Below are positions 1,620 through 26,630 of a DNA stretch of 28,716 nucleotides, in pieces. This DNA comes from a virus (Duplodnaviria > Caudoviricetes), in the IMG/VR virus record IMGVR_UViG_3300025167_000048, positions 1 through 28,716 of that record; one strand, written 5' to 3'. How positions within the stretch are numbered: the stretch's first letter is position 1; the number at the start of each line of letters is the position of its first letter. The translations under genes were made by a program, and so were the position numbers. The notes under the pieces were generated by a model. The model was not told where the DNA came from. It did no database searches and saw nothing but the letters and a program-made list of their open reading frames with translations.

Positions 1620-3107
1620 TTGAGCTTTTCCGTTGACGTTAAGAAATGGGATGCGAAACTCCAAATTGCGGCATTACAGAATTTACCCTCTAAAACGTCA
1701 ACGAGAAGCTATCTTTTAACTGCTGAAGAAAGCAAAACTGAAGACGGTGGTTTAGAACTTGAATTTGTGTTATCTGCAAAACCGAATCGCAACACCATTG
1801 ATATTCCGTTTTTAAGGGAAAACATTGTTCTGTATTATCAGCCGCCGTTAACTGAAGAATTCAACAAAGCGGACTGCGAAGTTTGGACCGAAACCCGTGT
1901 CAAAACAAAGGATGGACAAGAGTTTCTCCGTCCTGAGAACATTGTCGGAAGCTACGCAGTTTATCATGCTTCAAAAAAAGGCAACAATTACAAAACTGGT
2001 AAAATCTGCCACATTTTTCGTCCGAAGCTTATTGATGCTGACGGCAAAACTGTTTGGGCAGATTTTAATCGAGATGCAAATGAAACAAACGTTTTAATCA
2101 TAACACTTCCGCAGACGTTTCTCAACTCAGCCAAATACCCCGTGACGGTTGATCCGACTTTCGGCAAAACAAGCATAGGCGGAACAAGCGGAAACAGCAC
2201 TGCAGGATATATCCGAGGTTCCAAATACACTCTAAGCGAAAACGCTGAAGTAACTGCGTTAAGTGTTTACCTTGACACCGCAACGGGAAACGTGAAGAAA
2301 GCGATTTATGATGCAAGCCTCAACAAAGTATACGCTGACGATGTTGGGCAAGCCGTGGTTGCCGGCTGGAATACCAAGAGCGGATTATCAGTAGGTTTAA
2401 CCGCTGGCGATTACTGGCTCGTTTGGAAAAACGACACAAGCGGAACATACTACAAGTATGATGCTGGCACACTAAATCAGGGATTATACGCAACTTACGC
2501 TTACGCAACAGCTTTCCCAGCCACTTTAACGCCTGATGGATATCAGGATAGAGCCTATAGCATTTACGCCACGTACACCGCTGGCGCAACATTACAAACC
2601 GTAACCGATGCGGTCGCGCTTTCAGATAGCGTTTTGCGGCATAAAACGTTTAGCGTTTCGGATGGCGTGGGCGTTTCTGACTTGGCGAGAACCGACAAGA
2701 ATCCGTTGATCGTGGCTGACGCCTTAGGCTTGGTTGATGCTATTTTGCGGAATAAGCAGTTTGCCGTCACGGATGCGGTTGCGCTTGCCGAACTTGTCGA
2801 TGTTATCAAAGGGCTTATACTGAAAACTGTGGCGGATTCGATTGGGTTAAGCGATGCGGTTTTGCGGGATAAGGTTTTAGCGTTGATTGATGCGGTAGCG
2901 CTTTCCGACGCGGTTTCGACGCCTTCCCGTATCCTGCGGGCTTTGGATCAGGTAGGTCTTGCTGATGGCGCCTTAGTGAATAAGGTTCTGCAGGTCATTG
3001 AGAGCATTAGCCTTGTCGAGGTTGTTGAGGTTGGTGTTGGCGGCGCCAAGAAGACAAAGTTATTTCTAGTGCTGGGAGACTTGGCGATTCAACTTTCGAG
3101 TGATTAA
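1620..3107 (+). CDS. Putative fibre/adhesin: N-terminal beta domains plus C-terminal ~18-20 aa 'D-x-V/I-x-L-x-D' repeats
   Basis: 'YPVTVDPTFG' domain boundary, a Y/T/G-rich beta sandwich, and repeats DAVALSD/DGVGVSD/DALGLVD/DSIGLSD/DQVGLAD. Confidence 0.55.
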   Translation: MSFSVDVKKWDAKLQIAALQNLPSKTSTRSYLLTAEESKTEDGGLELEFVLSAKPNRNTIDIPFLRENIVLYYQPPLTEEFNKADCEVWTETRVKTKDGQEFLRPENIVGSYAVYHASKKGNNYKTGKICHIFRPKLIDADGKTVWADFNRDANETNVLIITLPQTFLNSAKYPVTVDPTFGKTSIGGTSGNSTAGYIRGSKYTLSENAEVTALSVYLDTATGNVKKAIYDASLNKVYADDVGQAVVAGWNTKSGLSVGLTAGDYWLVWKNDTSGTYYKYDAGTLNQGLYATYAYATAFPATLTPDGYQDRAYSIYATYTAGATLQTVTDAVALSDSVLRHKTFSVSDGVGVSDLARTDKNPLIVADALGLVDAILRNKQFAVTDAVALAELVDVIKGLILKTVADSIGLSDAVLRDKVLALIDAVALSDAVSTPSRILRALDQVGLADGALVNKVLQVIESISLVEVVEVGVGGAKKTKLFLVLGDLAIQLSSD

Positions 3108-3109
3108 TC

Positions 3110-3418
3110 ATGGCGGTTAAACTTGGCGTCGTAACAGGTGTTTGTTCTCGATGCAGCAGATTGCTAGTTCGCAATCGCCCTGAAGCTGAAGCGGTCTGTG
3201 ATTGCTTTGATTATTGCCCTCGCGATCACGGAAGTGGCGCCTACGCGACGAAGATGGATGCTTACACGCCTGATTTGACTCCTGCAACCTACGGCCCCAT
3301 GAAAGTGGTTTCTGGGGATGTACGTGGTGACCTGGATCACCCGATGAATATTCTTCGGCGTTGCCCTGTCTGCGGTTACCTTTCGGCTCAGAAGCCCGTG
3401 GAGGTGCGCTTATCATGA
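3110..3418 (+). CDS. Cys-rich zinc-binding protein
   Basis: CSRC, CDCFDYC and CPVC motifs; starts 2 nt after the upstream stop. Confidence 0.65.
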   Translation: MAVKLGVVTGVCSRCSRLLVRNRPEAEAVCDCFDYCPRDHGSGAYATKMDAYTPDLTPATYGPMKVVSGDVRGDLDHPMNILRRCPVCGYLSAQKPVEVRLS

Positions 3419-3522
3419 TGCGGTGCGCGTGTGGATCTGACGCTAACATATTCGAAGCTGGTAGGGCGGAATGTACGCGGTGCTATTTGAAGCGGGTTAA
3501 GGAAAGAGGGAGATCAAACTGA
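3415..3522 (+). CDS. 35-aa zinc-finger microprotein (not in the ORF track)
   Basis: MMRCACGSDANIFEAGRAECTRCYLKRVKERGRSN; ATGA overlap with the upstream stop and GGAGGTG SD at 3400-3406. Confidence 0.6.
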   Translation: MMRCACGSDANIFEAGRAECTRCYLKRVKERGRSN

Positions 3523-3743
3523 GTAAAAATTTTAAGAGCGACTTCGAAACTCCTCCACATACTAAAGTGCGTGTGGTTGCGACTGTCGATCGGAAACTCT
3601 GCGAGGAGATGGAGCATATTCATGTGCAGGAGATTGAGCGGGCTAGGGCTGAGGACCGTACTGAGCCTGATTGGAGCAACACACTAGAAATGCTCATGAA
3701 AAAAGGCGCTCGGGCTTACAAACGTAAGGAACCTGAAAAATAG
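3519..3743 (+). CDS. Ribbon-helix-helix-like DNA-binding protein, CTG start (not in the ORF track)
   Basis: (M)SKNFKSDFETPPHTKVRVVATVDRKLCEEMEHI...DWSNTLEMLMKKG shows a strand-helix-helix pattern. CTGA overlap with the previous stop; purine-rich SD upstream. Confidence 0.6.
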   Translation: MSKNFKSDFETPPHTKVRVVATVDRKLCEEMEHIHVQEIERARAEDRTEPDWSNTLEMLMKKGARAYKRKEPEK

Positions 3744-4227: not shown

Positions 4228-5847
4228 GTGGGCACTGTCCCAAGCGCCTACTACGACTATGTTATGCATTACGCGCCCTGGTACTACGCTGTTACGACTG
4301 CTATGGCTGCTGATCCGCCCTCTGGCCAGAAGAATGTCACTGTTGCAGATGGCTCCAAATTCAGCGCGAATATGCCCTGCGAGCTCAAGGATTCTGCTCA
4401 TAATGAATGGAACGAAGTTGACAGTGTACTCGGTAACGTTGTGACCATGAAAAACAACCTTGCCTACACGTACTATGTGGCGAAGGGCGGAACCGTGGAT
4501 CATGGCGACAAAGATTTTGGGAAAGGCGCTTTTCCCGCTGCTTTCGCCATCGAATTTCTCTATGAAGCCTATTCTGCTACTCAATTCGCATCTAATCAAG
4601 CTGAGATTCTCTCAAAAATCGTCGAGCTTGCCGATTGGTTGTTGACTCAGCAATGCACAGATAATCTGAAGTTGGCGTATGGCGGCTTCAAATCTGGCGA
4701 GTCAAGTACTCAGTATTGGGCTGTCGACGCTGGCAGGGTTATTCCTGCTTTGCTGAAAGCTTATGCTCTGACGTCGACTGTGGGCTATTTGGATGCTGCG
4801 AAGTTGGCAGGGTACACTTTTCTCTATACGATGCAACAGCAGCCTAGCGTTCTCGGAATCCATGATAAATACTATGGCGGCTTTCCGAATTACGTTAGCA
4901 TAAGCGATACTTGGGATTCGGTGATGAGCGTTGAAAACCTCTATTGCCTCATTGGGCTTAAGATGTTGGCTGATACCTACGATACGGCCAATGCTTCCAG
5001 GTACAATTCCATGATGACTGATCTAGTCGGTTTCTTGCGTGAGGGTTTCGAGCAGCTCTATCTCTACTATAATCCGCCGCCTTCTGGATTGGGCGAGTGG
5101 TACCGCGTTGGGCTGAATGATACTGAGGTTTATGATGATCCTGTGAGTTTCGCGTTGCTCGGTCTCTACGCTTACGAGAGCTGGAGTCTCACTTGTCAGC
5201 GTGTCTACAATTTCATTCAATCGATTAGGGCTAGTGGGCAGTATCCGGCGTATTGGCCTGAGGTTTGTTGGCCTGGCTACCTTGACGTGGTTACGCGGTT
5301 CCCTGCTTGTCCCTACTATGACGCGATTACAATGGGGATTTTGTGGAAGGTCCGCAAAGAGCGTGATCCTCCAAGCTTCAAGCTGGCTTACGACGTCGCC
5401 GCCAAATATAGCGATGAATTTCTGTTTTGGGGTCCTCTGTTCACAGATTTTAGTCCTGTGACGCCTGCGAAGGCTATGGCTAATGTTACATGGTTGGCAA
5501 GGATGTTCCTAAACTACGAGGAGCCCTTAACCAGATTCACGCAGATTCTCAACAACAAGGGCGAAGCGGTTCTGCTTTATCCTGTCCGTCAGGCCGTGGA
5601 GATTGTAAGTTATGGCGAGCCTTTGGATGTGTTAGCTGTGATTTCACCTTTGCGAGCTGAGCAAGTCCTAATCGAGCCAGGATACTACCTGGATGACTAT
5701 CTGGCGTTTTACACATTCTTGCCAGTGCGCAGCCACGACAAAATCAGGCGTCAAGGTGAAGACTATGAGGTTCAGACTGTGACGCCTTTCACTTACGCGA
5801 ATCAGCGGTTTTACTTCAAGAGCGCTGCGCGGAGGCTGATTGCTTGA
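4228..5847 (+). CDS. Head-closure (stopper)-like C-terminal domain fused to a large alpha/alpha-toroid-like domain
   Basis: C-terminal 'FYTFLPVRSHDKIRRQGEDYEVQTV...YFKSAARR' fits the gp16-like stopper pattern. The central region has helical hairpins with 'LADWLLTQQ...GGF' and 'YGGF' motifs. Confidence 0.55.
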   Translation: MGTVPSAYYDYVMHYAPWYYAVTTAMAADPPSGQKNVTVADGSKFSANMPCELKDSAHNEWNEVDSVLGNVVTMKNNLAYTYYVAKGGTVDHGDKDFGKGAFPAAFAIEFLYEAYSATQFASNQAEILSKIVELADWLLTQQCTDNLKLAYGGFKSGESSTQYWAVDAGRVIPALLKAYALTSTVGYLDAAKLAGYTFLYTMQQQPSVLGIHDKYYGGFPNYVSISDTWDSVMSVENLYCLIGLKMLADTYDTANASRYNSMMTDLVGFLREGFEQLYLYYNPPPSGLGEWYRVGLNDTEVYDDPVSFALLGLYAYESWSLTCQRVYNFIQSIRASGQYPAYWPEVCWPGYLDVVTRFPACPYYDAITMGILWKVRKERDPPSFKLAYDVAAKYSDEFLFWGPLFTDFSPVTPAKAMANVTWLARMFLNYEEPLTRFTQILNNKGEAVLLYPVRQAVEIVSYGEPLDVLAVISPLRAEQVLIEPGYYLDDYLAFYTFLPVRSHDKIRRQGEDYEVQTVTPFTYANQRFYFKSAARRLIA

Positions 5848-6840
5848 GCGAGCTAGAGGACCCGGTTACTACTCTTTTGAGGTTGATCACTACGAGGATA
5901 CGTGTCACGAAGGATGATGGGAACGCTGCGAAGATTCTGGCTTCAGAGGCAGCGTTTGATCGGGAGCTCCTGCTAAAGGAGTACGATTCGCAGATCACTT
6001 TAGCGGTTGACCCAAACCTGGGTGTTCAGGACCAGAAGCTTGAGTTGGCTGGGCGTCTTAGGCGTCAGATGTACTATTTCAGGTTGACAGCGCATTCGGT
6101 CGATAAGCCTTCTGTGCCAGGCGCAGATCTAGGGCGAGTGATGCGCAACAAGGTCACCGCACAGGTTAAGGCGATTATTCGGGAGAACAGGACCTTGCCC
6201 TATCAGACCGCCTATAACTTTGCTGGTCTCGGGTATCCGTCTGGTGATCCGCATAAGGCGTTCGCTGCTGGTGCAGCCTCGGAACTGGCGCCGTCAAGCA
6301 CATCGTGGGCTGAATTATCGACTCTCGAATATCAGAATATTTGGTACAGTGGATGATCGCTTTTCCAAAAGCCATAATGTGAACAACCAGTATGCAATGA
6401 TGCTTTTTAGGTTTAAGATAGGCCCAAGGGAGCAATGCGTCAAGAAGATCGTGTTGAGTTTTGAGGGTTATGGCACGGCGCCCGTTGGGAACGGTATAAC
6501 GGTAAAAGTCTGGAATCATGTTGCCTCTGCGTGGCAGCAAGCTCAAACTGGAACGGGCAGCGGAGACGAAACAATAACGATCACACTTTTGGCTGATTGG
6601 CCTAACTTCATTGATTCAAGCGGCTACGTGTGGCTTCTGACCAGAACCACGAATCCAAGCAATGGCACCACGCCAGCAGTCGTTTACTGCGATTTTGTCC
6701 AGTGCACAATTCAGGTTTACGGGATCACTTACTGCGACGTCGTGAGTTACAAGCCTGTCGACGTCGTGGATGTCAAGCCTTTCCTCTTCAAGACCGAGTT
6801 CATTTTGAAAGGATGGTTGTTTGAGACGGTTTCAGGGTAA
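5844..6840 (+). CDS. Tail terminator-like protein with an inserted beta domain, interrupted by a +1 frameshift at ~6351
   Basis: Sits between stopper and tail tube. Removing one G in tggtacagtGgatgatcgc joins ORFs 5844-6356 and 6220-6840 into one 331-aa frame (...IWYSDDRFSKSH...). Confidence 0.6.
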
Positions 6841-8444: not shown

Positions 8445-8789
8445 GTGGAAGGTATTGAAGAATTTCAAGCGGCGATGCTGAAGTTTGACGGCGCCTTACA
8501 GAATCAGGTCTACCGTTATCTTGCAAGCTGGGCTGCTGACGTTAAGGCTGAGGCTATGCGTCTTGTTCCAGTGAAGACAGGATATTTGCGAAGCACAATT
8601 TACGCCAAGATTAGGGATTGGGTTGCGGAGATTGGGGCTGAGGCTACTTACGCGCTTTTCGTGGAATTAGGGACAAGGCACATGCAAGCAAGACCATACC
8701 TCTACCCAGCAATTCAAGAGCACTTGCTAAGGCTTGAGCAAATAATTCTCGAAGCGATTGATGCAGCTAAAGCGGAGGCGGGCTTATGA
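8445..8789 (+). CDS. HK97 gp10-family tail completion protein
   Basis: 'PVKTGYLRSTI' and 'YALFVELGTRHMQARPYLYPA' family motifs; start may be ACG at 8424. Confidence 0.85.
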   Translation: MEGIEEFQAAMLKFDGALQNQVYRYLASWAADVKAEAMRLVPVKTGYLRSTIYAKIRDWVAEIGAEATYALFVELGTRHMQARPYLYPAIQEHLLRLEQIILEAIDAAKAEAGL

Positions 8790-9427
8790 GCGCAATGCGT
8801 GAGATCAGTATTGCTATTCGCGCTGAAAACCGCACAATGGGCGTATTCCGCACAATATCGGCTGACGTTTTGAGTTTAGGCATGGCTTTCGGAGCTCTTG
8901 ATTCGCAAACGGGTCGCACTGTCATGCAAATATTCTCGGTAGTGCGCTTAATGACGAGTTTGAAAGCGATTTTGGCGACAACAACAGCTACTCAGACCGC
9001 TCACAACGTCGCTGTTGGGACTGGCGCTGTAACCCAAACTACTTTAGCTGTGTCCACGACTGGGGCAGTGACCGCTCAAGTTGCTCAGAATACTGCTACG
9101 CAAACGGGCATAATATCTCAAACGTTGCATGCAGTTAGGTTAGGTATTAGTGCAGTGGCGCATGGAGTTTACGCCGCTGCCTGCTGGATCGCCACAGCAG
9201 CTCAGAACGCTTTAAACATAAGCTACGGGACGTTTTTGGCTTTGACTGGCGTGGGCATCGCGGTTATTGCGATCGCCGCAGCCGCCATGTGGAGCTTCGC
9301 GAACAGCATGAATGCGGCCACGTCCAGCGTACAGGGCTTTAATGAGGCTGCTGCTGAAACGCCTTCCCATGCTCGTGGTATTCAGCGTGCGGGCGAGGCG
9401 GATCTGTATCGTCAAGGAGTTGAGTAG
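8786..9427 (+). CDS. Very short tape measure protein
   Basis: N-terminal 'ISIAIRAEN', Ala/Thr-rich helical body and 'WIATAAQNALN...TGVGIAVIAIAA' TMP-type repeat; upstream of the hub. Confidence 0.7.
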   Translation: MSAMREISIAIRAENRTMGVFRTISADVLSLGMAFGALDSQTGRTVMQIFSVVRLMTSLKAILATTTATQTAHNVAVGTGAVTQTTLAVSTTGAVTAQVAQNTATQTGIISQTLHAVRLGISAVAHGVYAAACWIATAAQNALNISYGTFLALTGVGIAVIAIAAAAMWSFANSMNAATSSVQGFNEAAAETPSHARGIQRAGEADLYRQGVE

Positions 9428-9429
9428 TC

Positions 9430-11025
9430 ACGAGCGTTAATCCTCCAAACCTCACGATCGCTTTAGGTTCTGTTGGCGTTCCCCAGGGCGACGTGATCGA
9501 AGCCAGAGTGCACCTTGGCGCCACGAAAGAGGTTAGCAGTTGGGAGCTTCTCCTGCAGAACTGGAATGCGAAGTACAGTCCCGGAGGGACTTATCCGCTT
9601 AGCGTGGGTCAGGATGGCTATATCTGCATTGGTCGGGGCGCGAATGTTCCGCAGATCATCACTACGAGGACCGAGAGCGTCAAGTATGAGTCTAGTCCCA
9701 GCGAGAGTTACGTTCGCGTGAGCGGTCGATGCTGGGGCGAAAAGCTTTTCCGCCAGGTCCTAACGAAGACGTATTCCAGTCAAAAGGGCGAAGCGATCGT
9801 TAAGGACCTGTTGGATTACTATTCTGGGCTTAGTCATGTTCGGAATTTTGTGGAACTTGTGGAGAATACAAGCACGACCTTTACGCTTTTGGAATATGAG
9901 AATACGCCTGTCTGGGACATTCTAAGGGCTATTGCCGCTGCAAGCGATTTGGCTGGCGTGATCGGGTACGATTTTCGCATAGCCCCGGATGGCAAGGCCG
10001 AGTTTTTCCCAAGAAACAGCAAGAGCAATTCCGTGAGTTTGAGCGAGAAGATTGAGTATAGCGAGTATCGCAAGGACATTTTCAGGGTGCGAAACAGGGT
10101 CACGATTTATGGGGCGCCAGAGAAAAGCAGTCCAGCAGATAAGTTTTCATCAGTTGAAAGCCTTTCGCCAACAGAAGGTGCATGGACTGCAGTCGCGGGC
10201 TCCGTTAGCCTTGATAGCTCAAAGCATTATTCTGAAGCCACTGCGAGCATCAAAAACTCAACGGGAGCTAACTATTACGGTGCTAGCCTTTTCACTTTCG
10301 GGACTTCATATATTGTCGACGCCAACAGATTTCCTTTACTCTTCCTTGTGCTTGCGAGAGATTCTACGTTACCCGGCAATTTCAGCATTGTATTATTCGA
10401 TACTTCTGATAGGATTGCTCAATGTGAGATCGGTCAGATTGGCGATGATAAATGGGTTCTTGAACAACTCAAGGTTGGCTCTGCGTATGCTGATCAATGG
10501 GCTGTTGAAGCTAATTTTGATTGGACGCATATCTGGCGTGTTAAAGTCGTAGGTTGGTGCACTGGTACGACACCTGGTAACTTCTGGGTTGGGCAATTAT
10601 TTTTCGGTGGTTGCCGCTATAGCTCGATGCAAGAGAATACCACAAGCCAAACCGCTTATGGCCTCCGCATGTTCGCTGACACAGATGAGGAGCTTTACAG
10701 CGATAACGAATGCATGTTGCGAGCGAAAGCGATTCTCGCTAACTTGAAGGATCCTGCAGAGTACCTTACAATTCGCAGCACGGTTATCGACTATGGCAAT
10801 ACACCTCTTCTGGCAGGAGATAAAATCAACGTTACTCTGCCCAACGAGAATGTGAACGCCGATTTCCGCATTCTGAGCGTTGAGTATTTGGTCGACGCGA
10901 AGACCCAAACGCTTGAGAGCACCTTGGAGCTGGGGCGTGAGGTTCCGCTCCTGGCTGATTACGTGTATGCTTTGCGCAGCAAAATCGACCATGTTAGTAG
11001 ACACAAAATTGCGAGGTTATTCTAG
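9430..11025 (+). CDS. Baseplate hub / tail-tip protein with an inserted carbohydrate-binding-like domain
   Basis: Hub features 'VRVSGRCW', 'RVRNRVTIYG', 'SQTAYGLR' and 'LLAGDKINV...FRILSVEY'. The frame is open upstream of GTG 9493 back to 9424. Confidence 0.7.
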   Translation, partial: TSVNPPNLTIALGSVGVPQGDVIEARVHLGATKEVSSWELLLQNWNAKYSPGGTYPLSVGQDGYICIGRGANVPQIITTRTESVKYESSPSESYVRVSGRCWGEKLFRQVLTKTYSSQKGEAIVKDLLDYYSGLSHVRNFVELVENTSTTFTLLEYENTPVWDILRAIAAASDLAGVIGYDFRIAPDGKAEFFPRNSKSNSVSLSEKIEYSEYRKDIFRVRNRVTIYGAPEKSSPADKFSSVESLSPTEGAWTAVAGSVSLDSSKHYSEATASIKNSTGANYYGASLFTFGTSYIVDANRFPLLFLVLARDSTLPGNFSIVLFDTSDRIAQCEIGQIGDDKWVLEQLKVGSAYADQWAVEANFDWTHIWRVKVVGWCTGTTPGNFWVGQLFFGGCRYSSMQENTTSQTAYGLRMFADTDEELYSDNECMLRAKAILANLKDPAEYLTIRSTVIDYGNTPLLAGDKINVTLPNENVNADFRILSVEYLVDAKTQTLESTLELGREVPLLADYVYALRSKIDHVSRHKIARLF

Positions 11026-11646: not shown

Positions 11647-11985
11647 ATGATGAAAAAAAAGAATTCTTTTTTTTATCATGTGGGTGATGAGGATTACGGG
11701 CGTGTTTTCCGTCGTATAACGCGGAAATTGAGGAAATTGAAGAAGAAAGACTTTGTTAAGGCTGAATCTTTTGCGGCTCGGGATGAAGTTTGCAGGGTCT
11801 TCGCTGCTGAATGTTTTGACCTGTCTAAGAAATTTGCTGCTAATGGCGATGAGAAGCTTAGTTTGCAATATGCTAAGTTAGCTGCCAGGCTGCTAGGGCT
11901 TTCGTTGCGTCCTAAGAAGTTGAGTGATTTGGATGAGATTAAGAAGGCTTTGGCTGAGTTGAAGGCGCAGGAGAAGGCTGAGTAG
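11647..11985 (+). CDS. Putative terminase small subunit
   Basis: Basic, helical 112-aa protein with AGGTGA SD, overlapping the terL start. Positional inference only. Confidence 0.45.
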   Translation: MMKKKNSFFYHVGDEDYGRVFRRITRKLRKLKKKDFVKAESFAARDEVCRVFAAECFDLSKKFAANGDEKLSLQYAKLAARLLGLSLRPKKLSDLDEIKKALAELKAQEKAE

Positions 11986-13544
11986 TGTCATGGCGAAGTT
12001 TGCCTGGTAGTGTTGCGGGTCTTTGGCGTGAGATTGAGAAGATTCAGTCTGTTAGGGTGTCGATGGAGGATAGGCGCAAGATATGGTTTCTGGCTAAAGT
12101 GCTTGCTGACTTGAGCGGGCAGAGTGTTGATGTTGTTTTTCGGAGAATCAAGCCGCGCAGCGAATCTGACCTCAACGCTATTTACGCTTTGTACGATAAG
12201 TGCCAAGGTCACAGCATCGAAGAACTCGGTGAGGATCCTCTGTTTTCAGAGGTTTTCCTGAATTTCAAGCATAAGAAGTATCAACTGAAGTTCGCGGTTA
12301 GCCAAGCTAGGCAACAGACAGTGTTGTGGACTCGGCAGGGCGGAAAAACCACATCTATCGGCGTGAAGTTGTTTAAGCGTCGTGTTCGGCGTCCCGGTAG
12401 TCAAGCAACTATTACGGGTCCTGGATTGAGGCAAGCTAAGCTTGTTATTGAGAAGCTGTCTGATGTTCTTAGCAGGATGGATCCTGTAGCGCATAAGGCG
12501 TGGGTTGAGAAGGTTCTAAAAACAACTATTCGCCTGAGGAATCGTTCGCGTTTGAAGGCTTTTCCCTTCAGTTTAGAGAAGCTTCGGGGCGAAACTAGCG
12601 ACGATGTGGATGTGGAGGAAGCGGCGTTCATTAAGGAGCTTGAAGAGTTGGTGCAGGGTACACTTATTCCTCAGATGGCTACTCGTTGGGACCGAGGGGC
12701 ATCGATTGTTTTGAATAGTACGCCTTGGGATAAGAAGAGTTACTATTACAAGACGTTGCATGTTCCTGAGGTGTCGAAGTTTTGGATACCTTTTGTTGCC
12801 GATTACCATGAAGCTGTTAAGGAAGACTTAATCACACAGGGATTTATTGATTTGCAGCGTCAGCAGTTGGATCCTGACCGTTTTTCCAGAGAGTATGAAT
12901 GCAAGTTTACTGAAGATAGAGGGCGTTGGCTTAGTCAAGAGCTGATAACCAAGTGTGTAGATTCGAGTATTGTGGAGCCTTGGCGTTTCGAGGATAACTT
13001 TGAAGGCTTGGAATTCTATGGCGGGTTCGATATTGGCCAGGAACATGATAATGCGGCTTTCAGCGTTGTAGAAAAAGTGGGCGAAGTGCGTTTTCTGCGC
13101 TATAGCTACGTTTTTCCTCTGGGAACAAGATATGATGTTCTTACGAGTCACGCAAAGGTTTTGTCTGATCGCTGGCAGACGCTGGTCAGGCTTCTTATTG
13201 ATGCGACTAACGAGAGAGCGCAGGCTGAATCTATGGCAACGCAGATTGAGGGCGCGGAGGGTGTTGCTTTATCGCTTCAGTGGAAGCAAAAGGCAGCTAG
13301 TTATCTCAAGCAGTTAATGGGAAAGAAACAGTTTAAGTATTATTTTGACCCGGATTTGATTGCGGATTTGGCGATTGAACAGTTCGAGGAGTTGCCAGGC
13401 AAGTCGGCTGAGGGTGAAGGGAATATCAGGTTTTTCCATGCCCCTGGCACACATGACGACCGCTTTTGGAGTATTGTTTTAGCGGTGGCGGCGTCAATGG
13501 AAGAGGAGTTCGAGTCGGTGTTGGAGGTGTTCAGAGTTGGGTAA
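11985..13544 (+). CDS. terL: Terminase large subunit
   Basis: Walker A 'TRQGGKTT', Walker B 'VDVEEAAF', coupling motif 'NSTP', 'SREYECKF', and RNase H-like nuclease motifs 'GGFDIG..HD' and 'HDDRFWS'. Confidence 0.92.
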   Translation: MSWRSLPGSVAGLWREIEKIQSVRVSMEDRRKIWFLAKVLADLSGQSVDVVFRRIKPRSESDLNAIYALYDKCQGHSIEELGEDPLFSEVFLNFKHKKYQLKFAVSQARQQTVLWTRQGGKTTSIGVKLFKRRVRRPGSQATITGPGLRQAKLVIEKLSDVLSRMDPVAHKAWVEKVLKTTIRLRNRSRLKAFPFSLEKLRGETSDDVDVEEAAFIKELEELVQGTLIPQMATRWDRGASIVLNSTPWDKKSYYYKTLHVPEVSKFWIPFVADYHEAVKEDLITQGFIDLQRQQLDPDRFSREYECKFTEDRGRWLSQELITKCVDSSIVEPWRFEDNFEGLEFYGGFDIGQEHDNAAFSVVEKVGEVRFLRYSYVFPLGTRYDVLTSHAKVLSDRWQTLVRLLIDATNERAQAESMATQIEGAEGVALSLQWKQKAASYLKQLMGKKQFKYYFDPDLIADLAIEQFEELPGKSAEGEGNIRFFHAPGTHDDRFWSIVLAVAASMEEEFESVLEVFRVG

Positions 13545-13605: not shown

Positions 13606-13633
13606 ACTACGTACATACTGGGATGTACGTGGT
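13606..13633. repeat. 28-bp inverted repeat with 11-6-11 geometry (candidate recombination site or operator)
   Basis: ACTACGTACAT-ACTGGG-ATGTACGTGGT; arms match at 10/11 positions; intergenic. Confidence 0.75.
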
Positions 13634-13733: not shown

Positions 13734-15188
13734 TTGAGGGATCGCAGGGAGCATTTTAAGATTCGCAGGGTCCGCCGGGTTTATGATCGTTCAAGTAGTA
13801 AGTTTGCGTTTAATATTTCTTATGAGACTGCGGTTCAGTTGACGCCGAGGACTGTTGTTGTGGCTGAGGCCTTCGGGTTGGGCGTTGACGATTCGCAGAA
13901 GTTCACGGTTCTTAATACGGAATTGAAGATAAGTCCTTCTGACATCGTATTGATCACTGGCGATAGTGGCAGCGGCAAGAGCGTTTTATTACGCGCGATC
14001 AGGGCAGATTTGAGAGATGAGGCTGTTGACATGTCTGAGGTTCAGGTGATTCCTGATAAGCCGCTTATCGAGACTATAGGCGCTACTGTTGAAGAGGGCT
14101 TGGAGCTGCTCAGCAAAGTGGGCCTGAATGATGCTTTTCTTTTCCTACGTACATACGATCAGTTGAGTGATGGCCAGAAGTACCGTTATCGCCTTGCCAA
14201 ATTCTTGGAAAGTAAGGCGCAATGGTGGCTTATGGATGAATTCGCGGCTACGCTTGACCGTGATACGGCGAAGATTATCGCTTTTAACGTTCAGAAGTTG
14301 GCTCGGCAGCAGGGCAAAGCTGTTCTCGCTGCGACTACGCATGATGATCTCTTTGAGGATCTGTCGCCTTCGGTGCACGTGCATAAGCGTTTCGGCGAAG
14401 AAATTGAGGTTAAGGAATTCCCGAATAAGGCGGCTGCCGAATGCAGTCTCTTGAAAGAGATGAAGGTTGAGGGCGGACTTCTGGATGATTGGCGTAAACT
14501 AAGCGTTTTTCACTATCGCAGCCACAGCGTTGGAGCCAGAAGGGATATTTTCAGTTTAAGGTTTCGCGGTTGGCTTGTTGGCGTGATCGTGTATTGTTAT
14601 CCGCCTCCGAATTGCGGTGGCCGCGGACTTGTGCTGCCGCGCATGCCCATCAAAGAGTTGAATAGGAAACTGAGCATTATTAGCCGTGTCGTAATACATC
14701 CTAAATACCGCACTATCGGCTTAGGCGCAAAGTTGATCCGTGAGTCGTTACCGCTCATTCATACGCCTTTTGTGGAGATGATTGCTGTTATGGCGAAGTA
14801 TAATCCGTTTGCGGAGCGTGCGGGCATGCGCCGGGTTGTCGTGAAGGAGGCGGCTGAGGAGGCCTTGGGCATGGCGGAGGTCCTGAAGGGTTTTGGCTTT
14901 GACGTGCAGTTGTTGGCTAGTGAGCGGTATGTACGTGGTAAACTCGCGGGTTTGAATCCCGCCCAACTGAGCGAATTAAAAGAGGCTTTCGTTAAGAATG
15001 ATTATCCGCGGTTCCGAAGAGAGATTGCTGCGCTTCGTCATGTGCCTTATGGTACCACAGCAGCCTTTCGGGAAGGAATAGCGGGTGCGGATTTGGAGAA
15101 GATAGCGAAGTTGATTAGGATTGTTGGGGTTCTTCTTCAGACGAAGGTTTATTTATTTTGGAGCAGAGACGAAATTCGTAAGCCGTAA
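13734..15188 (+). CDS. Soluble ABC-ATPase fused to a GNAT (Mom-like) acyltransferase
   Basis: Walker A GDSGSGKS, signature LSDGQ, Walker B LMDEF and H-loop ATTH. C-terminal 'FHYRSH' and acyl-CoA motif A 'SRVVIHPKYRTIGLG'. No permease nearby. Confidence 0.85.
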   Translation: MRDRREHFKIRRVRRVYDRSSSKFAFNISYETAVQLTPRTVVVAEAFGLGVDDSQKFTVLNTELKISPSDIVLITGDSGSGKSVLLRAIRADLRDEAVDMSEVQVIPDKPLIETIGATVEEGLELLSKVGLNDAFLFLRTYDQLSDGQKYRYRLAKFLESKAQWWLMDEFAATLDRDTAKIIAFNVQKLARQQGKAVLAATTHDDLFEDLSPSVHVHKRFGEEIEVKEFPNKAAAECSLLKEMKVEGGLLDDWRKLSVFHYRSHSVGARRDIFSLRFRGWLVGVIVYCYPPPNCGGRGLVLPRMPIKELNRKLSIISRVVIHPKYRTIGLGAKLIRESLPLIHTPFVEMIAVMAKYNPFAERAGMRRVVVKEAAEEALGMAEVLKGFGFDVQLLASERYVRGKLAGLNPAQLSELKEAFVKNDYPRFRREIAALRHVPYGTTAAFREGIAGADLEKIAKLIRIVGVLLQTKVYLFWSRDEIRKP

Positions 15189-15465
15189 CGGTTTGTTCTG
15201 GGTTCCAAGCGCCATTTATGTTAATCCATGCTTCGCGGAATTCTTCGATGTTGCTGAATCCTTCGGCTTTGGCGTCTTCCAGGGTGATATCTCCTAGGCG
15301 TTGTTGTGATGTACGTAGTATTGTGATGTGGCCTTGTGATTTCTGATAGCGTCTGCAGGTTATTCCGTAGGTGTGGCCGACTTTGAGGGCTCGCTTGTGG
15401 ATCCTGCGGCTTTGTGTTTTGCTGCCATCTAGAACCTTCGCTAGTAGCGGCTTTTTGAAGAGCAT
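15115..15465 (-). CDS. ASCH (PUA-like) domain protein
   Basis: Likely start ATG 15465: MLFKKPLLAKVLDGSKTQSRR (GxKxx[TS]xR motif) and 'RLGDITLEDAKAEG'. Confidence 0.85.
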   Translation of the reverse strand: MLFKKPLLAKVLDGSKTQSRRIHKRALKVGHTYGITCRRYQKSQGHITILRTSQQRLGDITLEDAKAEGFSNIEEFREAWININGAWNPEQTVTAYEFRLCSKINKPSSEEEPQQS

Positions 15466-15484: not shown

Positions 15485-16054
15485 TCAGGATTGAACTTGG
15501 TGTGCTTGGCGATCTCTTTTAGCTTCACGTTTCCTTTTAGCTTCTTTGCGCAGGACCTCAGCGGTTCTTTCAAAGTCCTCAGGGGTCTCTAGTTTAATCT
15601 CAGCCATAGGTGTCATGACACCTACTGCCTTCTTTGCGGCTTCCATTCTAGCTTTTTCTATGGCTTCTTTTCTATCTTTTATTAGTTCCTCAGTTTGCGA
15701 GACGCTTATTCGCCTAAGCATAATTTCTCTTGCAATTCTCGTAGCATCTTCCACGTTAGCTCCGATTACTGGCTCTAATCTTTGGATATGACTGATGCTA
15801 AGGTCTCCACTCCAAACAGCATCTTGGATGTCATCTGGGAACTTGAAGACGTTAATATGTGCTAAAACCCAGCTATCATCAACGCTAAGTTCTTTCCCAA
15901 TTTGGTAAAAAGTCATTCCGCCTTCTCGGAGTTCGCTTTTTTCGGGTTTGATATAGCAGTCCATTTTGGCTTGGTCTTGCATGAAGAGGCGTTCGGCTTC
16001 TTCCCAGATCATTTCGCGGATGTGTGGCCAGAATTTTCCTTTCGCTCTTTGCAT
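15485..16054 (-). CDS. Chimeric protein containing a ParB/Spo0J-type HTH region without the ParB CTPase domain
   Basis: 'MTFYQIGKELSVDDSWVLAHINVFKFPDDIQDAVWSGDLSISH...ISVSQTEELI' matches the Spo0J central-domain pattern. Confidence 0.6.
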   Translation of the reverse strand: MQRAKGKFWPHIREMIWEEAERLFMQDQAKMDCYIKPEKSELREGGMTFYQIGKELSVDDSWVLAHINVFKFPDDIQDAVWSGDLSISHIQRLEPVIGANVEDATRIAREIMLRRISVSQTEELIKDRKEAIEKARMEAAKKAVGVMTPMAEIKLETPEDFERTAEVLRKEAKRKREAKRDRQAHQVQS

Positions 16055-16350: not shown

Positions 16351-16365
16351 CAGATGGGAATAAAC

Positions 16366-20139: not shown

Positions 20140-21710
20140 AGTTGCGTCTTTCGTCTGATTTTGCCATCGATACGGATGATTACAAACGTGAGGGCTTACG
20201 CATTAGTATATTAGCTATGAGTGGGCATGGCAAGAGCAACGCGGCTGCCGACGTCGTTGAAGACGTCTTGGACAATGGCGCCCAAGTGATCATCATAGAG
20301 CCGATACCGGAGTGGCACACTTTGAAAGCCCGGTATAATAACGTGGTCGTGGTGGGCGGGCCATATCAGGATTTGCCGCTTGAGCCTGCCTTCGCTCACG
20401 AATACGTTAAGTCCGCGTTGGAGAAGGGCATTAGCCTCATAGTAAACGTGAGCGACATCGAGGATGATGCGGACCAGGTGCGGTTCGTCAGCAACTTCTT
20501 GTGGAATCTTTATCGTTTGGAGCAGAAGTACCGGCGTGTTGTCTTCCTGGTGCTTGAGGAAGCGGATACGTGGGCTCCGCAGATGTGGGATGCCGTTACG
20601 AAGCAAAGTCTCTCTCGAGTTAGCCTTATCGCTAAGCATGGCCGCAAAATCGGCATCTTCCCAATCCTAATCAGCCAGCGCCCTGCGGACCTGCACAAGA
20701 GCCCCTTGAGTCAATGCAACGTTAACCTTTTCGGCAGGTTCACAAGCCCAGCGGACCTCAGCGAAAAAACAGGCATCATGTACGTGGTGAAGAAGCAGCA
20801 CTTGCCTATCACTGAAGAGCAGATCATGAAGTTGCCCCAGAGTACATTCATCGTGACCGACCAGAACGGAGTACATACGGTTGCGGTCCGCAAACGCCTA
20901 TGCCCGCATGGCGCCGATACTCCGCTTGTGGAAACTAAGCCCTTCACTGCTGATGTTTCTAACGCTTTGAGCAGCTTGAGCGAAGAGATATCGAGGGCGG
21001 TTGCAGCCAAGAAGGCTGAGGATTCTGAGGTTAAGCGTCTTGGGAAGGAAGTTGCTCGCCTGAAAGATGAGAAGAAGGAGCTTGAGGCGAAAGCGAACAT
21101 CAAACTTTCTATACAAGAGATGATGAGCGGCAATGGTAAGGTTGCTCCTGAGGTTCTTGAGAAGCAGCTCGAGGAGGCAAGGCAGCAGGGTTTCAAAGAA
21201 GCACTGGAAAAACTTGATGCGGTCAAGAAAGAATGGAAGGTTGACGAATACCAGAATACTATAGCCTCTTTGAAGGATGAGAATTCAGCATTCAGGCAGG
21301 ATCTGGAAAAGTTAGAGCTAGAGAACGCGAAATTTGCTAAATTCAAAGCGGCTTTGGCTGAGCTTTTACCTACTCCATTATCTACGGGTTTACCTACAGA
21401 GAATAACGCGGTTGGGCTGCAGGCAACCACGACCATCGTTGATGTGGCTGCTGCTGAAAAATTTGTAACCATCAATACCGAGAGTTTTGCGGGTAAGATT
21501 CTTGCGGTTGCTAAGAAGGGCAAACTCGATAAATGGCAGCAACTGGGCGAGGTCGTGAAAGCTGTTGAAGAGGAGAAGTGGACGGCAACATCTCAGCAAG
21601 TCAATAATGCTCTAAATGATTTGGTTAAGGATGGGTTAATCGCTAAGAAGCACACTGACAGGAACTATTTCTGTTTGGCTCAGGGAGTCCAATTCAAGGA
21701 GGCCTCTTAA
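20136..21710 (+). CDS. HerA/FtsK-superfamily ATPase (DUF87-like) with coiled coil and C-terminal wHTH
   Basis: Walker A 'AMSGHGKS', Walker B 'LVLEEAD', arginine finger 'GRKIG' and 'ISQRP'; C-terminal 'QVNNALNDLVKDGLI'. Confidence 0.85.
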   Translation: MKLRLSSDFAIDTDDYKREGLRISILAMSGHGKSNAAADVVEDVLDNGAQVIIIEPIPEWHTLKARYNNVVVVGGPYQDLPLEPAFAHEYVKSALEKGISLIVNVSDIEDDADQVRFVSNFLWNLYRLEQKYRRVVFLVLEEADTWAPQMWDAVTKQSLSRVSLIAKHGRKIGIFPILISQRPADLHKSPLSQCNVNLFGRFTSPADLSEKTGIMYVVKKQHLPITEEQIMKLPQSTFIVTDQNGVHTVAVRKRLCPHGADTPLVETKPFTADVSNALSSLSEEISRAVAAKKAEDSEVKRLGKEVARLKDEKKELEAKANIKLSIQEMMSGNGKVAPEVLEKQLEEARQQGFKEALEKLDAVKKEWKVDEYQNTIASLKDENSAFRQDLEKLELENAKFAKFKAALAELLPTPLSTGLPTENNAVGLQATTTIVDVAAAEKFVTINTESFAGKILAVAKKGKLDKWQQLGEVVKAVEEEKWTATSQQVNNALNDLVKDGLIAKKHTDRNYFCLAQGVQFKEAS

Positions 21711-22989: not shown

Positions 22990-23784
22990 TTGCTTGTTTT
23001 GGCTGGGCGTTCTAGGGAATCCTCTTCGCGTGTGGACCATAATGATTATGATGGTTATGGTGAAAGCCTTAGGCATCGCGTTTTCTGCGAGCTCGATAAG
23101 AATCCGTTGCTCACTCCATTGGCGCTACGGCGGATTCTGAGATTTGATCGTGGCGTTAGCCTTCAGCTCCTTGCGAATTACAAGAACCAATGGCGCCATA
23201 ACTATCGAAATATGCGAGGTCTAAAGTGCCTAAGCTTTCATAATGCGCGGGCGAATGCGGTGGTGCCGAGGGATGTTAGTAGGGTTGAGGCTGTTAGGTG
23301 TAATTGGCTTGTTACTAGGGCGCGGAATAGGATGCTTGTTTGGCGGGATGAGTTGGGGCGGTTGGAGTGGTTTGAGACTGGTTTTGTGAAGGTTTGGGTG
23401 CGGAAGCCTGCGACTGAAGGGAAGGCGGTGCAATTGTTGGCTAATGGGTTTACGAAGACTGAGTTGATTTGGGATATGCGTGTTTGGGAGCGGGTTCGGC
23501 GTAGTTTGGTTCTTCATGGGGCTACGTTGGCTGTTGAGACCGGTGTTCGGTTGCCGTATGTTTGCGTGGAGTTGTTGAAGGAAAGTAATGGCGTTAAAGT
23601 GAAGATGGGTGATTTGACTGATCCGACGAAGTTGGAGATTGAGTTTTGTTATCCTAAGTGGGCTCAGAGAAATGAGCAGATTTTAGGGCAGCTTGCGGAG
23701 GTTCTGAAGAGCCTTTACAACTTGAACGGTGCAGCCGCGAATGGTGTTAAAGATTTGAGGAGCATGAAGGATTATGTTTTCTAG
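22990..23784 (+). CDS. Basic, Trp-rich hypothetical protein, possibly DNA-binding
   Basis: N-terminal HTH-like 'LDKNPLLTPLALRRIL'; 264-aa ORF in the operon. Confidence 0.6.
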   Translation: MLVLAGRSRESSSRVDHNDYDGYGESLRHRVFCELDKNPLLTPLALRRILRFDRGVSLQLLANYKNQWRHNYRNMRGLKCLSFHNARANAVVPRDVSRVEAVRCNWLVTRARNRMLVWRDELGRLEWFETGFVKVWVRKPATEGKAVQLLANGFTKTELIWDMRVWERVRRSLVLHGATLAVETGVRLPYVCVELLKESNGVKVKMGDLTDPTKLEIEFCYPKWAQRNEQILGQLAEVLKSLYNLNGAAANGVKDLRSMKDYVF

Positions 23785-24220
23785 TTACCACGTTAAGGTT
23801 ATTTGGGAAATTGTAAGAGATGGAAATTATGATGCTCGCAAACTGGCAGACAAGCATTATTCTCGCAAAACAAAAGGTGCAGCACTATTCTGCGGACCAG
23901 GCAAACATCTTGTGCTCATGACGCTTGATAAGAATGCCCTCTTTGTTTGGCGCAAGAATAAGTTTCGTCGAGATGATCAAGTAGGTGTGGAATGCACGAT
24001 ATTTAGAAACGAAGGCCCAATGCTATCAAGTGACCTCATCAGAGAAGCTATAAAAATCGCAAGGAACAAATGGCCTAACGAACGGTTCTTCACCTACGTT
24101 AATCCAAGTGCGATTAAAAGCACGGATCCTGGGCATTGTTTCAAGCAAGCTGGCTGGAAAAGAATTGGCACTAATCGTACAGGAAAATTGATTTTGTTGG
24201 AGGCCCCTATATGTACGTAG
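23774..24220 (+). CDS. Mom-like (GNAT-fold) putative DNA-modifying protein
   Basis: 'ARKLADKHYS', 'FFTYVNP' and 'PGHCFKQAGWKRIG' parallel the Mom-family HY and G-x-x-Y/F-x-A-x-G/N-W motifs. Confidence 0.6.
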   Translation: MFSSYHVKVIWEIVRDGNYDARKLADKHYSRKTKGAALFCGPGKHLVLMTLDKNALFVWRKNKFRRDDQVGVECTIFRNEGPMLSSDLIREAIKIARNKWPNERFFTYVNPSAIKSTDPGHCFKQAGWKRIGTNRTGKLILLEAPICT

Positions 24221-24409
24221 TAAGGGTTACTCGTAGTATTCCAGCGTTCAATTTGCCTGTGGATGGTTGTTTAGTGGGTTTTGATGGTGTTTGCAGAGGC
24301 TTGGATTTCTCTTCTTTTCGAGAAATAAGCCTTTTCTATGGCGCTGGATGCATGGGATTTTTTGCGTCTGTAGATGTAGACCAAGTGGTGTTTGTTTCGG
24401 TACTTGTTG

Positions 24410-25012
24410 ATGGAGCGGAAAACCTTGAGTGAACAGAGTAAACAGGAAATCGTTGAAAAGCCTGTTCAGAAGCGTTCTCCTGAGGAGAAAATTGGCAGAA
24501 TTAAGTGGAATCAGATCTTGCTGAACCGTGTTTTGGACGAGATTAAGAAGTTCAGAGAGGATATGGAAGCTGAGAAGCGTCAGATTCGGGAAGAGATTAA
24601 GCAACTTAGAGTTATGGAGCGTGCTATTCTCAATGGCTTCAGGGGCAGCGGTATTATCAAATATACTGTGCCTATGATTGAGCGGATTGCTTGTGTCGAC
24701 GCGGTTGACTTTGCGATTTTGGAAAGTGTTTATAGAGCGGCTAGTCCTGGCGTTCTCCCGAAGATAGTGGCTGTGGATATCGATGTCGATGCGGAATTGC
24801 GTAAACGTAGCCCTTACGATTTGAAATATTATGATGTAAGCCGCAGGATCGTCCACATGAACAAACGCCTTTTCGAGGAGCTTGCCGAGTGCTTGTTTGA
24901 GAAGCGTGGGCTGAAGTGGGCGTTGACGAGTTTTGCGTTTGAGGTTTGGGGCGAAGAGAAATTAGGCGAAACAGAAAAGGAGAATACTACGAGTACTCTG
25001 GGGTCCTCGTAG
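24410..25012 (+). CDS. Coiled-coil plus winged-helix (LysR/ModE-like HTH) regulator
   Basis: 'DVSRRIVHMNKRLFEELAECLFEKRGLKWALT' resembles the LysR recognition helix and wing; last gene before the late module. Confidence 0.55.
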   Translation: MERKTLSEQSKQEIVEKPVQKRSPEEKIGRIKWNQILLNRVLDEIKKFREDMEAEKRQIREEIKQLRVMERAILNGFRGSGIIKYTVPMIERIACVDAVDFAILESVYRAASPGVLPKIVAVDIDVDAELRKRSPYDLKYYDVSRRIVHMNKRLFEELAECLFEKRGLKWALTSFAFEVWGEEKLGETEKENTTSTLGSS

Positions 25013-25016
25013 TAAC

Positions 25017-25199
25017 TTATTTGGTTTTGTCTTCTTTGTCCTGGTAGTAGCTTACGCCTGCGGATAGTCCAACGCTTAGAGCTAGAGCGATTATTGTGGC
25101 TGATAGATCTCCGGATGAGGCTATGTAGGTTGCGCCTGCGGCGACGCCGTTGACGATTGCCAAGACCGCTGCGAGTTTGGGTTTGAATGTGAATCCCAT
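25017..25199 (-). CDS. 60-aa membrane protein with two TM helices
   Basis: GGAGGTGA SD at 25204-25211 (minus strand), two hydrophobic helices and a charged tail. Confidence 0.7.
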   Translation of the reverse strand: MGFTFKPKLAAVLAIVNGVAAGATYIASSGDLSATIIALALSVGLSAGVSYYQDKEDKTK

Positions 25200-25340
25200 T
25201 GGTTCACCTCCTATCGATTCTCGTTTTAAGCTCTCCCACATTTTAAAGCTTATTTTTTGCTTCTTTAAATTGTTTAAGCCTATTTTTGGTTTATCGTTTA
25301 ACGAAAGGGATATAAACGGTTTGTGCAGATATGGTTACGC

Positions 25341-26630
25341 ATGCCCTCTGCCCTGCAGTCGTTTCTAAGTAGAATTCGCGGTGCTTTTCATGAGAGCGCC
25401 TTGTTTGTGTCTTCTACCGAGAAAGCCATGGGCGTTTCTTCTGCAATCAGTTTTAAGACTATGTCGATGGTTTACCAAGCTGATCTTGCAGCTCGCGCCA
25501 GCATCGATTTCCTTGCGGATCAGGTTGCTGGTCAGGGCTTCTATACTACGTACAATGAGGAGTACCAGGAGAAGAGTGATGGCAAGACCGCTAAGGAAAT
25601 TGTTGACGCGTTTTGTGAGCGCGTGGGCTTGGATGAGCGGTTGCAGGAGACAAGTCGTTATGCCATAGGTTGGGGTAACGTTTTTTGGTGGGTCGGCCAC
25701 AAACAGCGAATTGATTTTCTGAGAGTTATTCCGCTTGAAGTAATCAAGGACCGCGGGCTGAGGTTCAGCGAGGACGGCGTGGTCACGCAGTTTCTGCTTG
25801 ATTGGGACCGCGACCTCAAAGAGATCTCCGGGCAGGAACTGATCCATCTTCCGTACAATGTCATGTCTTCAAGCCCATTGGGGCTAGGTATTTTGCACAG
25901 CCTCTGTGCGCCCTTAGCCATCGGCAACGGTGAAACTCGCGAGCCCTTTTACCAAATTAAAGGGAAGCTTCACAGCGGCATGGCGGATACGATTTACACT
26001 TTTGGGGCGCCCAATGAAATTTACAGTTTTCCAGGCCTCGCGAAAGATAAGTTGGAAAAGGCTCAATCGGACATTAGGAACATTCCCCGTCGTGGCGCCA
26101 GATTCGTGTACAATCCGCCTGCAGGTTCTGAAGCGAAGGTTACTTCGGTTGTGGCTGAGCGCATGCGCGGGCTTGATTTCTACGTCGAAACGCTTGACGA
26201 TGAATTTGTTCTTGGCCTTCAGACGCCTTTGGCAAAATTGGTCACGAAAACGGGCTTTACAGAGGCCAGCGCGAATGCTGCGTTGGAGATCGCTGAACGT
26301 CGCGTGACCGCCTTGCAGCGCTTTCTTAAGCGTGGCGTTGAACGATACTTGTTTGATCCTGTCGTAGCAGCGGCCGGGTTAGATCCTGCACAAGCTACGG
26401 TCCGCCTTAATTGGGGTATGCCTGAGAGCCTCGACTATGAGAAGTTATCTCAAATTCTCGGGCAAATCACCGAGTTGTTGAAGGTCAATCCGAACATTAT
26501 CGGAACTACGGAGCTCCGCAAGATCTTACGAGAAGTGGCTAAACTGCCATTGGACGAAGAGGATCCTGAGGCGGAGCTAGCTTCACGAGTATTACCGAAA
26601 CAAAAAGAGGAACAGAAGCAAAATGCGTGA
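25341..26630 (+). CDS. Portal protein
   Basis: 'IDFLADQVAGQGF', 'GWGNVFW', 'ELIHL...PLGLGIL', 'LGLQTP' and 'VTALQRFLKRGVE' portal pattern; upstream of the protease. Confidence 0.85.
   Translation: MPSALQSFLSRIRGAFHESALFVSSTEKAMGVSSAISFKTMSMVYQADLAARASIDFLADQVAGQGFYTTYNEEYQEKSDGKTAKEIVDAFCERVGLDERLQETSRYAIGWGNVFWWVGHKQRIDFLRVIPLEVIKDRGLRFSEDGVVTQFLLDWDRDLKEISGQELIHLPYNVMSSSPLGLGILHSLCAPLAIGNGETREPFYQIKGKLHSGMADTIYTFGAPNEIYSFPGLAKDKLEKAQSDIRNIPRRGARFVYNPPAGSEAKVTSVVAERMRGLDFYVETLDDEFVLGLQTPLAKLVTKTGFTEASANAALEIAERRVTALQRFLKRGVERYLFDPVVAAAGLDPAQATVRLNWGMPESLDYEKLSQILGQITELLKVNPNIIGTTELRKILREVAKLPLDEEDPEAELASRVLPKQKEEQKQNA

Follow-up and report, generated by a model that had tools for sequence, protein, structure and literature searches.

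The stretch of DNA analyzed here, referred to as the window, is the 28,716-nucleotide IMG/VR virus record IMGVR_UViG_3300025167_000048, which belongs to a head-tail virus of Bathyarchaeia. Its gene set includes those for capsid, tail tube, terminase, an ABC-ATPase/GNAT fusion, a radical-SAM protein and a HerA-like ATPase, and the metagenome-assembled genomes (MAGs; designated by G numbers) in which relatives of its terminase were found are titled Bathyarchaeia or unclassified archaea. Dispersed through these genes is the word ATGTACGTRGT, termed dialect A below, together with sister words of similar form. This account concerns these words, the host nurA-like gene in which they cluster, and the protein machinery that may read them.

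The exact word occurs seven times in the window, where 0.029 copies are expected from an order-0 model, 0.007–0.02 from Markov models of orders 1–4 and 0.20 from an order-5 model, and it ranks first among the 9-, 10- and 11-mers of the window under an order-3 model. With up to one mismatch allowed, 11 matches are found versus 0.35 in dinucleotide shuffles. Inside genes, its 10-mer is seen six times against an expectation of 0.46 from synonymous-codon shuffles of 42 open reading frames (ORFs), a count reached in 0 of 500 shuffles, and of the 14 positions at which the protein sequence would allow the word, 6 use it. The enrichment had been proposed in a first-pass annotation made from the letters of the window, and it holds against both Markov and codon-shuffled backgrounds; the seven exact copies listed there are present, as are the additional TGTACGTRG cores at 2569(−), 11472(+), 14145(−) and 25546(−), the near matches at 3471 (one mismatch) and 16764 (two mismatches), and a 15-mer common to 3315 and 13620. 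The plus-strand bias reported with them disappears once cores and sister words are counted, the core being distributed 7+/4− and a widened consensus 12+/8−; this widened consensus is too loose for host counts (0.66 vs. 0.88 per 10 kb in G135). The sister word TVCTCGTRGT (dialect B) is present in eight copies (0.3 expected) and has a 28-bp inverted pair of its own, while TRGTCGTRGT is present in three (0.2 expected). The window thus contains three dialects at 20 sites on both strands, comprising 9–11 copies of A, eight of B and three C-like words (Table 1), and the D and E words described below were not found in it. No viral contig contained an exact copy of the 28-bp pattern.

Table 1. Dialect sites of the window and the two genes used or rejected in tracing their reader.
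Feature	Position	Strand	Context
28-bp inverted pair of dialect A (11-6-11)	13606..13633	.	Between terL and ABC-ATPase/GNAT gene; exact words at 13606(−) and 13623(+)
28-bp inverted pair of dialect B (11-6-11)	24986..25013	.	CTGGG spacer core common to A pair
Dialect A, exact	3318..3328	+	Inside ORF 3110-3418
Dialect A, exact	14929..14939	+	In ABC-ATPase gene
Dialect A, exact	15309..15319	+	Within minus-strand ASCH gene
Dialect A, exact	20778..20788	+	In viral HerA-like gene; also in G144 provirus homologue
Dialect A then dialect B	A 24211-24221, B 24227-24237	+	A overlaps stop of ORF 23774-24220
Dialect B, and dialect A with one mismatch	B 11421-11431, A 11471-11481	+	In ORF 11369-11629
Dialect A, one mismatch	14144..14154	−	FLRTY codons of ABC-ATPase
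Dialect A, one mismatch	25545..25555	−	In portal-like gene
Dialect A, one mismatch	3471..3481	+	
Dialect A core, two mismatches to 11-mer	2568..2578	−	
Dialect B	5513..5523	−	In ORF 4228-5847
Dialect B, exact	5889..5899	−	In ORF 5844-6356
Dialect B, exact	9369..9379	+	In ORF 8786-9427
Dialect B	9661..9671	−	In tail gene 9493-11025
Dialect C-like word	4250..4260	−	
Dialect C-like word	20343..20353	+	In viral HerA-like gene
Dialect C, exact	21426..21436	−	In viral HerA-like gene
Terminase large subunit (terL)	11985..13544	+	Query for finding relatives in Bathyarchaeia MAGs
ParB-HTH remnant without ParB N-terminal domain	15485..16054	−	Rejected as reader

Conservation at synonymous positions, which the first-pass annotation had recommended as a check, also favors the word over the peptide. 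The exact site in the ABC-ATPase gene is retained in the closest provirus (G002:C6) despite a Gly/Ser change and is absent from relatives with the same YVRG peptide, which use other codons; at the FLRTY codons of this gene, motif-poor relatives have different synonymous codons. The inverted A pair occupies the same place in the G002:C6 provirus, and loci L022 and L024 hold a dialect-B word there. The view that these are dispersed sites read by a protein stands insofar as they are dispersed, selected and protein-read, and fails for most of the readers that had been named with it.

The word is a motif of host lineages rather than of viruses. The first-pass annotation had advised a look at host chromosomes, and the same word is enriched there: 14–54 copies are present in 7 of 251 Bathyarchaeia genomes and at most four in the others, with no more than three copies of a reversed-pattern control in those seven. 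Among five MAGs with related proviruses that were examined, G002 has 32 copies versus three of the reversed control, and six of 41 relatives of G002 carry 10–32. Apart from a single conserved cluster of three to four, host copies are scattered over unrelated genes, integrated elements and proviruses. The density of the exact A word in the window is ~16–29 times that of G002 or G146. Viral loci, several of which are near-duplicates, fall into 8 of 22 with 4.2–7.0 sites per 10 kb and 14 of 22 with 0–1.6, the latter including the provirus of the B-type G135.

The host gene bearing the conserved cluster is located between a winged-helix (wHTH) gene and herA, approximately 1.2–1.5 kb from a cdc6-like gene and repeats resembling origin recognition boxes (ORB-like), both recognized by eye. 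These TTCCA-type repeats of the origin region, judged against the ORB consensus, are separate from the word. The encoded protein falls under Pfam and NCBIfam detection for NurA and a PDB sequence search with it gave no match. A Foldseek search with its AlphaFold model, which is of low confidence (predicted local distance difference test, 53.5), returned NurA chains at ranks 1–9 (E 3e-5 to 1e-3). Residues D75, E134, D164, K195 and Y284 (G135 numbering, used throughout) are invariant in 11 sequences and match, by order and without superposition, the catalytic residues given in the consulted portion of PMC3326311. Judged by the model and these residues, the gene likely encodes a NurA-family nuclease, and it is referred to as nurA below. 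In G135 C1, nurA-herA at ~45 kb is remote from mre11-rad50 at 1,083 kb, so that nurA does not share an operon with mre11 and rad50 on this sequence. The nurA gene is present in 19 of 20 motif-rich genomes; it was not found in G001, G003 and G004 (possibly incomplete MAGs), the proviral loci of which are motif-poor.

Dialects B (ATVCTCGTRGT) and C (ATGGTCGTAGT) occupy the same nurA codons in other genomes, and de novo inspection of nurA in genomes that had seemed negative yielded dialects D (CTCTTCGTRR), E (ATGTACGTCGC), F (TGTGCACCGT) and G (TTTCCACGGCA). One to four copies of the own-dialect word lie inside 25 of the 30 nurA genes examined, and nurA coding sequence holds 77 own and three other-dialect copies in 24.5 kb versus seven own copies in 66.8 kb of flanking DNA, which is 30-fold sparser. 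Since dialect labels come from the nurA genes, genome-wide counts constitute the independent part of this evidence. Dialect B is present in 19–29 copies in each of G133, G135, G136 and G137 and heads the non-repeat 10-mers of G135 C1 (18 vs. 1.5). Dialect D exceeds its control in G056 (44 vs. 9), G022 (22 vs. 3) and G020 (23 vs. 9), as does E in G010 (13 vs. 0) and G021 (4 vs. 0), and G occurs six times in G011, four of them inside nurA.

Comparison of nurA with its neighbors indicates that the dialect is very probably set by the nurA allele. The HerA of G127 is 93–94% identical to that of G128 and its wHTH protein 92% identical to that of G002, while its NurA is only 55–60% identical to any other and its gene carries a D cluster; the G127 chromosome contains 18 A words and one D word. 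Grouping of this NurA with those of its host relatives was rejected by the approximately unbiased (AU) test even with the alignment columns encoded by the sites removed (p 0.011). From these sequences, the nurA of G127 has evidently been swapped, bringing its own dialect into a chromosome that kept the old one. Similar mismatches are found in G011, with a G cluster in nurA and seven E words elsewhere, and in G303, with a C cluster in nurA and 54 A words genome-wide. On the HerA tree, dialect A is intermixed with B, and A as a single clade is rejected; the columns that separate A from B number eight in NurA (0.2 in random partitions), 0 of 387 in HerA and 0 in the wHTH protein. At NurA positions 123, 124 and 127, the A state is kept in four genes without a DNA site there. 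These positions fall on a predicted helix (119–143), which carries the invariant R130 and E134; E-type NurA has R123 and Q127 like A, and words E and A have ATGTACGT in common. Whole-allele exchange is claimed for G127 only, because, apart from the central segment, the A and B forms of NurA branch in agreement with host relationships. Treatment of dialect A as a NurA clade was also tried and set aside: a first tree required six changes versus nine on HerA, was partly circular, and required eight without the site-coded columns.

The word may be a Chi-like attenuation and recombination signal that NurA-HerA reads and mobile elements accumulate, a proposal to which we assign an even chance. It draws on the host distribution and dialect evidence given above, on the presence of nurA in nearly all motif-rich genomes and the site density of viral loci, and on published precedents. 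In the consulted parts of the respective papers, the T. kodakarensis HerA-NurA complex cleaves both DNA strands and is suggested to serve in destroying foreign DNA (PMC12977600), and Chi is over-represented in lambdoid phages that lack recombinases (PMC3784561; PMC12315714). HerA would thread DNA to NurA, which would read the word as a stop mark, contacting it through helix residues 123, 124 and 127 on the face that carries the catalytic Glu134, and recognition would attenuate degradation. A virus that accumulates three host dialects on both strands would thereby have its incoming linear genome spared and able to recombine, and dialect switching would be an arms race with mobile elements. A broader statement, that Bathyarchaeia independently evolved a NurA-HerA Chi system in which specificity helix and cognate password reside in the same DNA and are exchanged together, relic passwords being layered in chromosomes and viruses stocking several to widen their host range, is more tentative and falls somewhat short of even. 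If true, archaea would possess a Chi counterpart built from unrelated proteins, viral genomes would be a readable record of host history, the lineage of the host being predictable from the dialects they contain, and there might exist a small family of nucleases whose specificities can be exchanged. The consulted part of PMC12977600 poses as an open question how HerA-NurA, able to cleave both strands in vitro, can serve repair and leave self DNA intact, and the seven natural NurA-word pairs make sequence control of NurA directly testable. The words are nowhere described in the portions consulted of the literature on archaeal Chi-like signals and Bathyarchaeia NurA-HerA, with subscription papers and supplements outside its scope, and the motif is unmentioned in the available text of PMC10848311 on Bathyarchaeia viruses.

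A number of findings weigh against a Chi-like signal tied to NurA. Hosts contain one exact word per 50–120 kb, which is a low density, and a provirus of the B-type G135 has only four sites in 46 kb, the same as the control. Polarity relative to replication, a hallmark of Chi, gives a mixed picture: the strand split is 14:11 in G135, and in G022, where the origin was placed by gene order and the contig assumed to be nearly whole, the inferred leading strand carries 20 of 22 D words but also six of eight copies of a same-composition control, against which the G022 polarity loses force. The link to NurA has weaknesses of its own: TM-scores of the NurA matches are 0.2–0.3 for a low-confidence model; nurA was not found in the motif-rich G144 or the D-enriched G020 (incomplete MAGs); and five of the 30 nurA genes, two of them broken, have no recognized dialect. 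The in-gene dialect count is circular, because its labels were read from the same nurA genes; the genome-wide counts cover A, B, D, E and G; and G has only two copies outside nurA in G011. For five of the eight A/B-separating NurA columns, the sites themselves supply part of the coding; once site-coded columns are dropped, A and B NurA branch as their hosts do (AU p 0.49 and 0.30). Finally, the pile-up of sites in the nuclease's own gene is not accounted for by Chi. The abundance of Chi in E. coli is argued, in the part consulted of a preprint (10.1101/2021.07.08.451572), to reflect codon use rather than self-marking. Even under a loading or regulatory mechanism, it is unusual for the gene of a nuclease to contain sites specific to its own allele. 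Autoregulation and a portable loading site were retained as rivals because either would account for the concentration of sites inside nurA.

The loading mechanism survives best among the alternatives and is nevertheless unlikely. In this view, NurA would bind intact duplex DNA at the word and act as loader of the HerA motor, the nurA cluster being a portable centromere-like site beside oriC on which episomal viruses hitch-hike. It would suit the short distance of nurA from the ORB-like repeats and cdc6-like gene and the near-even strand split in G135, as well as a motif scan of G135 C1 in which neither a ParA-type partition ATPase nor a canonical SMC was found. A cluster moving with its allele would function immediately after a swap, and parS inside spo0J is a precedent for a loading site within a gene. 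However, the sites are restricted to nurA rather than occupying the origin region, as the seven copies in the 66.8 kb of flanks illustrate, the catalytic residues of NurA are invariant, integrated proviruses equal free virus in site richness, and failure to find nurA in 20 of 41 relatives fits an accessory system.

A further improbable explanation, ranked just below, is that the words serve as operators for a regulator (NurA or a neighboring winged-helix protein) by which nurA would be autoregulated and which mobile elements would exploit, as mobile elements and phages do with LexA and CtrA boxes. Autoregulation could explain the in-gene cluster, inverted pairs lie directly upstream of integrase genes (G002:C11 and G143:C12) and of the viral ABC gene, and an element in G056 (G056:C14) has the word 7–45 bp before several start codons. 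Against this, most host copies are inside unrelated genes (25 of 28 in G135 C1 by our own ORF calls) and no copy was seen ahead of a repair gene. The upstream wHTH protein has no A/B-separating column, and the recognition helix of the downstream membrane-HTH protein is identical in A, B and C genomes (three genomes).

It is quite improbable that the word is a preference sequence for DNA uptake or transfer, its dialects having spread by molecular drive by way of an importer of the HerA/Ced type. The best NCBIfam match of host HerA is CedD (E 6e-18, far below the cut-off), words arise at synonymous positions wherever proteins permit, and the DNA uptake sequences of Neisseriaceae do have dialects. 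Those sequences number thousands per genome, however, whereas tens of word copies are found here; viruses are 15–30 times richer in words than hosts, and the dialect tracks NurA and not HerA. More doubtful still is the idea that the pairs represent dif- or lox-like sites of recombination, with single copies as recombinase half-sites, which the first-pass annotation had raised for XerA. The nurA pair is a perfect 11-6-11 repeat in one register and viral pairs span 28 bp, in agreement with the 11-6-11 format of dif in the consulted part of PMC2958812. Nevertheless, XerA exceeds the NF040815 family cut-off in 0 of 41 genomes, half-site spacers vary (−2, 1, 4, 6 and 11–14 bp) and pairs are missing from E and F genes, proviruses possess their own integrases with sites internal rather than at provirus ends, and the site lies beside the origin rather than opposite to it. 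Reading by a virus-encoded protein (ParB-HTH, RHH, AbrB, wHTH or viral HerA) has a precedent in mycobacteriophage stoperators and would suit the peak of site density in viruses, yet it is scarcely credible and largely refuted by the host distribution, since a viral repressor or HerA-like ATPase fits poorly with a motif conserved in a host core gene across lineages, unrelated element types bear the word, orientation to transcription is mixed, and the viral ParB is truncated.

In that ParB-HTH ORF, a short unrelated segment stands in for the ParB N-terminal domain; its longer relatives, which have this domain in 27 of 27 cases, fuse ParB_N and HTH to a methyltransferase domain or to other domains at the C terminus. 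Elsewhere in the window, the ABC-ATPase/GNAT fusion (13734-15188), the radical-SAM gene (18893-19765) and a small GNAT/Mom-like ORF (23774-24220) suggest a DNA base-modification module. Imperfect palindromes (16293-16362 and 18219-18246) stand directly upstream of each AbrB-type gene, flanking a 542-amino-acid minus-strand gene, and are possibly operators of a separate cassette. The window contig is likely a nearly complete circle, because the major capsid gene is split over its ends (28554-28716 and 1-709); the halves do not overlap and their direct join is out of frame, so that some bases are missing, approximately 28 codons relative to the homologue in the G135 provirus. Neither an integrase nor an integrase remnant was found in the window.

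Around nurA, two nurA-herA loci are present in G128 (L100 and L120), one A-type and the other divergent and without a recognized word. A membrane-anchored coiled-coil protein with a C-terminal HTH (L146:5142-5873), convergent with herA, is conserved in G135, G146 and G303. An RHH-GcvH gene next to one conserved site, which itself falls in a small ORF, was rejected as reader, being absent from G002, G061, G126–G128, G303, G327, G023, G065 and G081. No good site was found near the second Orc1/Cdc6 paralogue of G135, and no SOS-like regulon was seen in the host genomes inspected. The A-type G146 contains the G-dialect word seven times, all on the forward strand (control, three). In G303, intergenic repeat modules (L182:7860-8140 and L190:3350-3460) hold phased arrays of four to eight A and C words between CCCCTATA-type repeats and have no Rfam or tRNA match; an RNA explanation was rejected, as Rfam gave one tRNA in six sources and nothing over these arrays. 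A second dispersed repeat, similar to CCCTCCCTTATAAATAGGTTGAA, occurs at ~24 places in G135 C1, flanks the terL-ABC genes of the G135 provirus and resembles window positions 13700-13716. L197 (G056:C14) is a virus-like element with PCNA- and ParB-like genes and A-type words just before several start codons in a MAG that is D-type, and possibly came from another host or was misbinned.

Among known systems, as far as the consulted portions of the cited sources describe them, parS/ParB, including the half-parS of Pseudomonas aeruginosa, shares a cluster near oriC and dispersed half-sites in genes. It differs in that no fixed palindrome is found here and the dialect follows the nuclease gene; ParB_N, moreover, was not found in the five closest A-type, motif-rich genomes, with no match in the incomplete MAGs G002, G061, G126, G127, G128 and G137, which speaks against the parS-like reader once proposed for the window. 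Archaeal XerA/dif (PMC2958812) resembles some pairs in its 11-6-11 format and differs in its recombinase and single fixed site, since here XerA stays below the cut-off, spacers vary, some dialects have no pair, and an origin-proximal location is combined with many dispersed half-sites. With the archaeal HerA-NurA complex (PDB 3tal, 2ygk and 9x1l; PMC3326311; PMC12977600; PMC13748450), the NurA fold, catalytic residues and adjacent herA are held in common; the consulted text of these three papers reports no sequence preference of NurA, and the Bathyarchaeia gene is linked to the origin in G135 C1 rather than to mre11-rad50. Chi with RecBCD, the Chi of AddAB and Chi-rich lambdoid phages (PMC3784561; PMC12315714) likewise present a short, asymmetric, lineage-specific word linked to a helicase-nuclease and carried by temperate viruses at higher density than by their hosts, frequently at synonymous positions, and the over-represented word found here is short, asymmetric and specific to host lineages. 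The machinery is unrelated, an RNase H-fold NurA and a HerA ring taking its place, and the Bathyarchaeia word, at 10–11 nucleotides, is sparse in hosts, clustered in the nuclease gene and switches between close relatives. Because the linked gene is NurA-like, the word is classed, if the proposal holds, as Chi-like in its working and not as a member of the Chi family.

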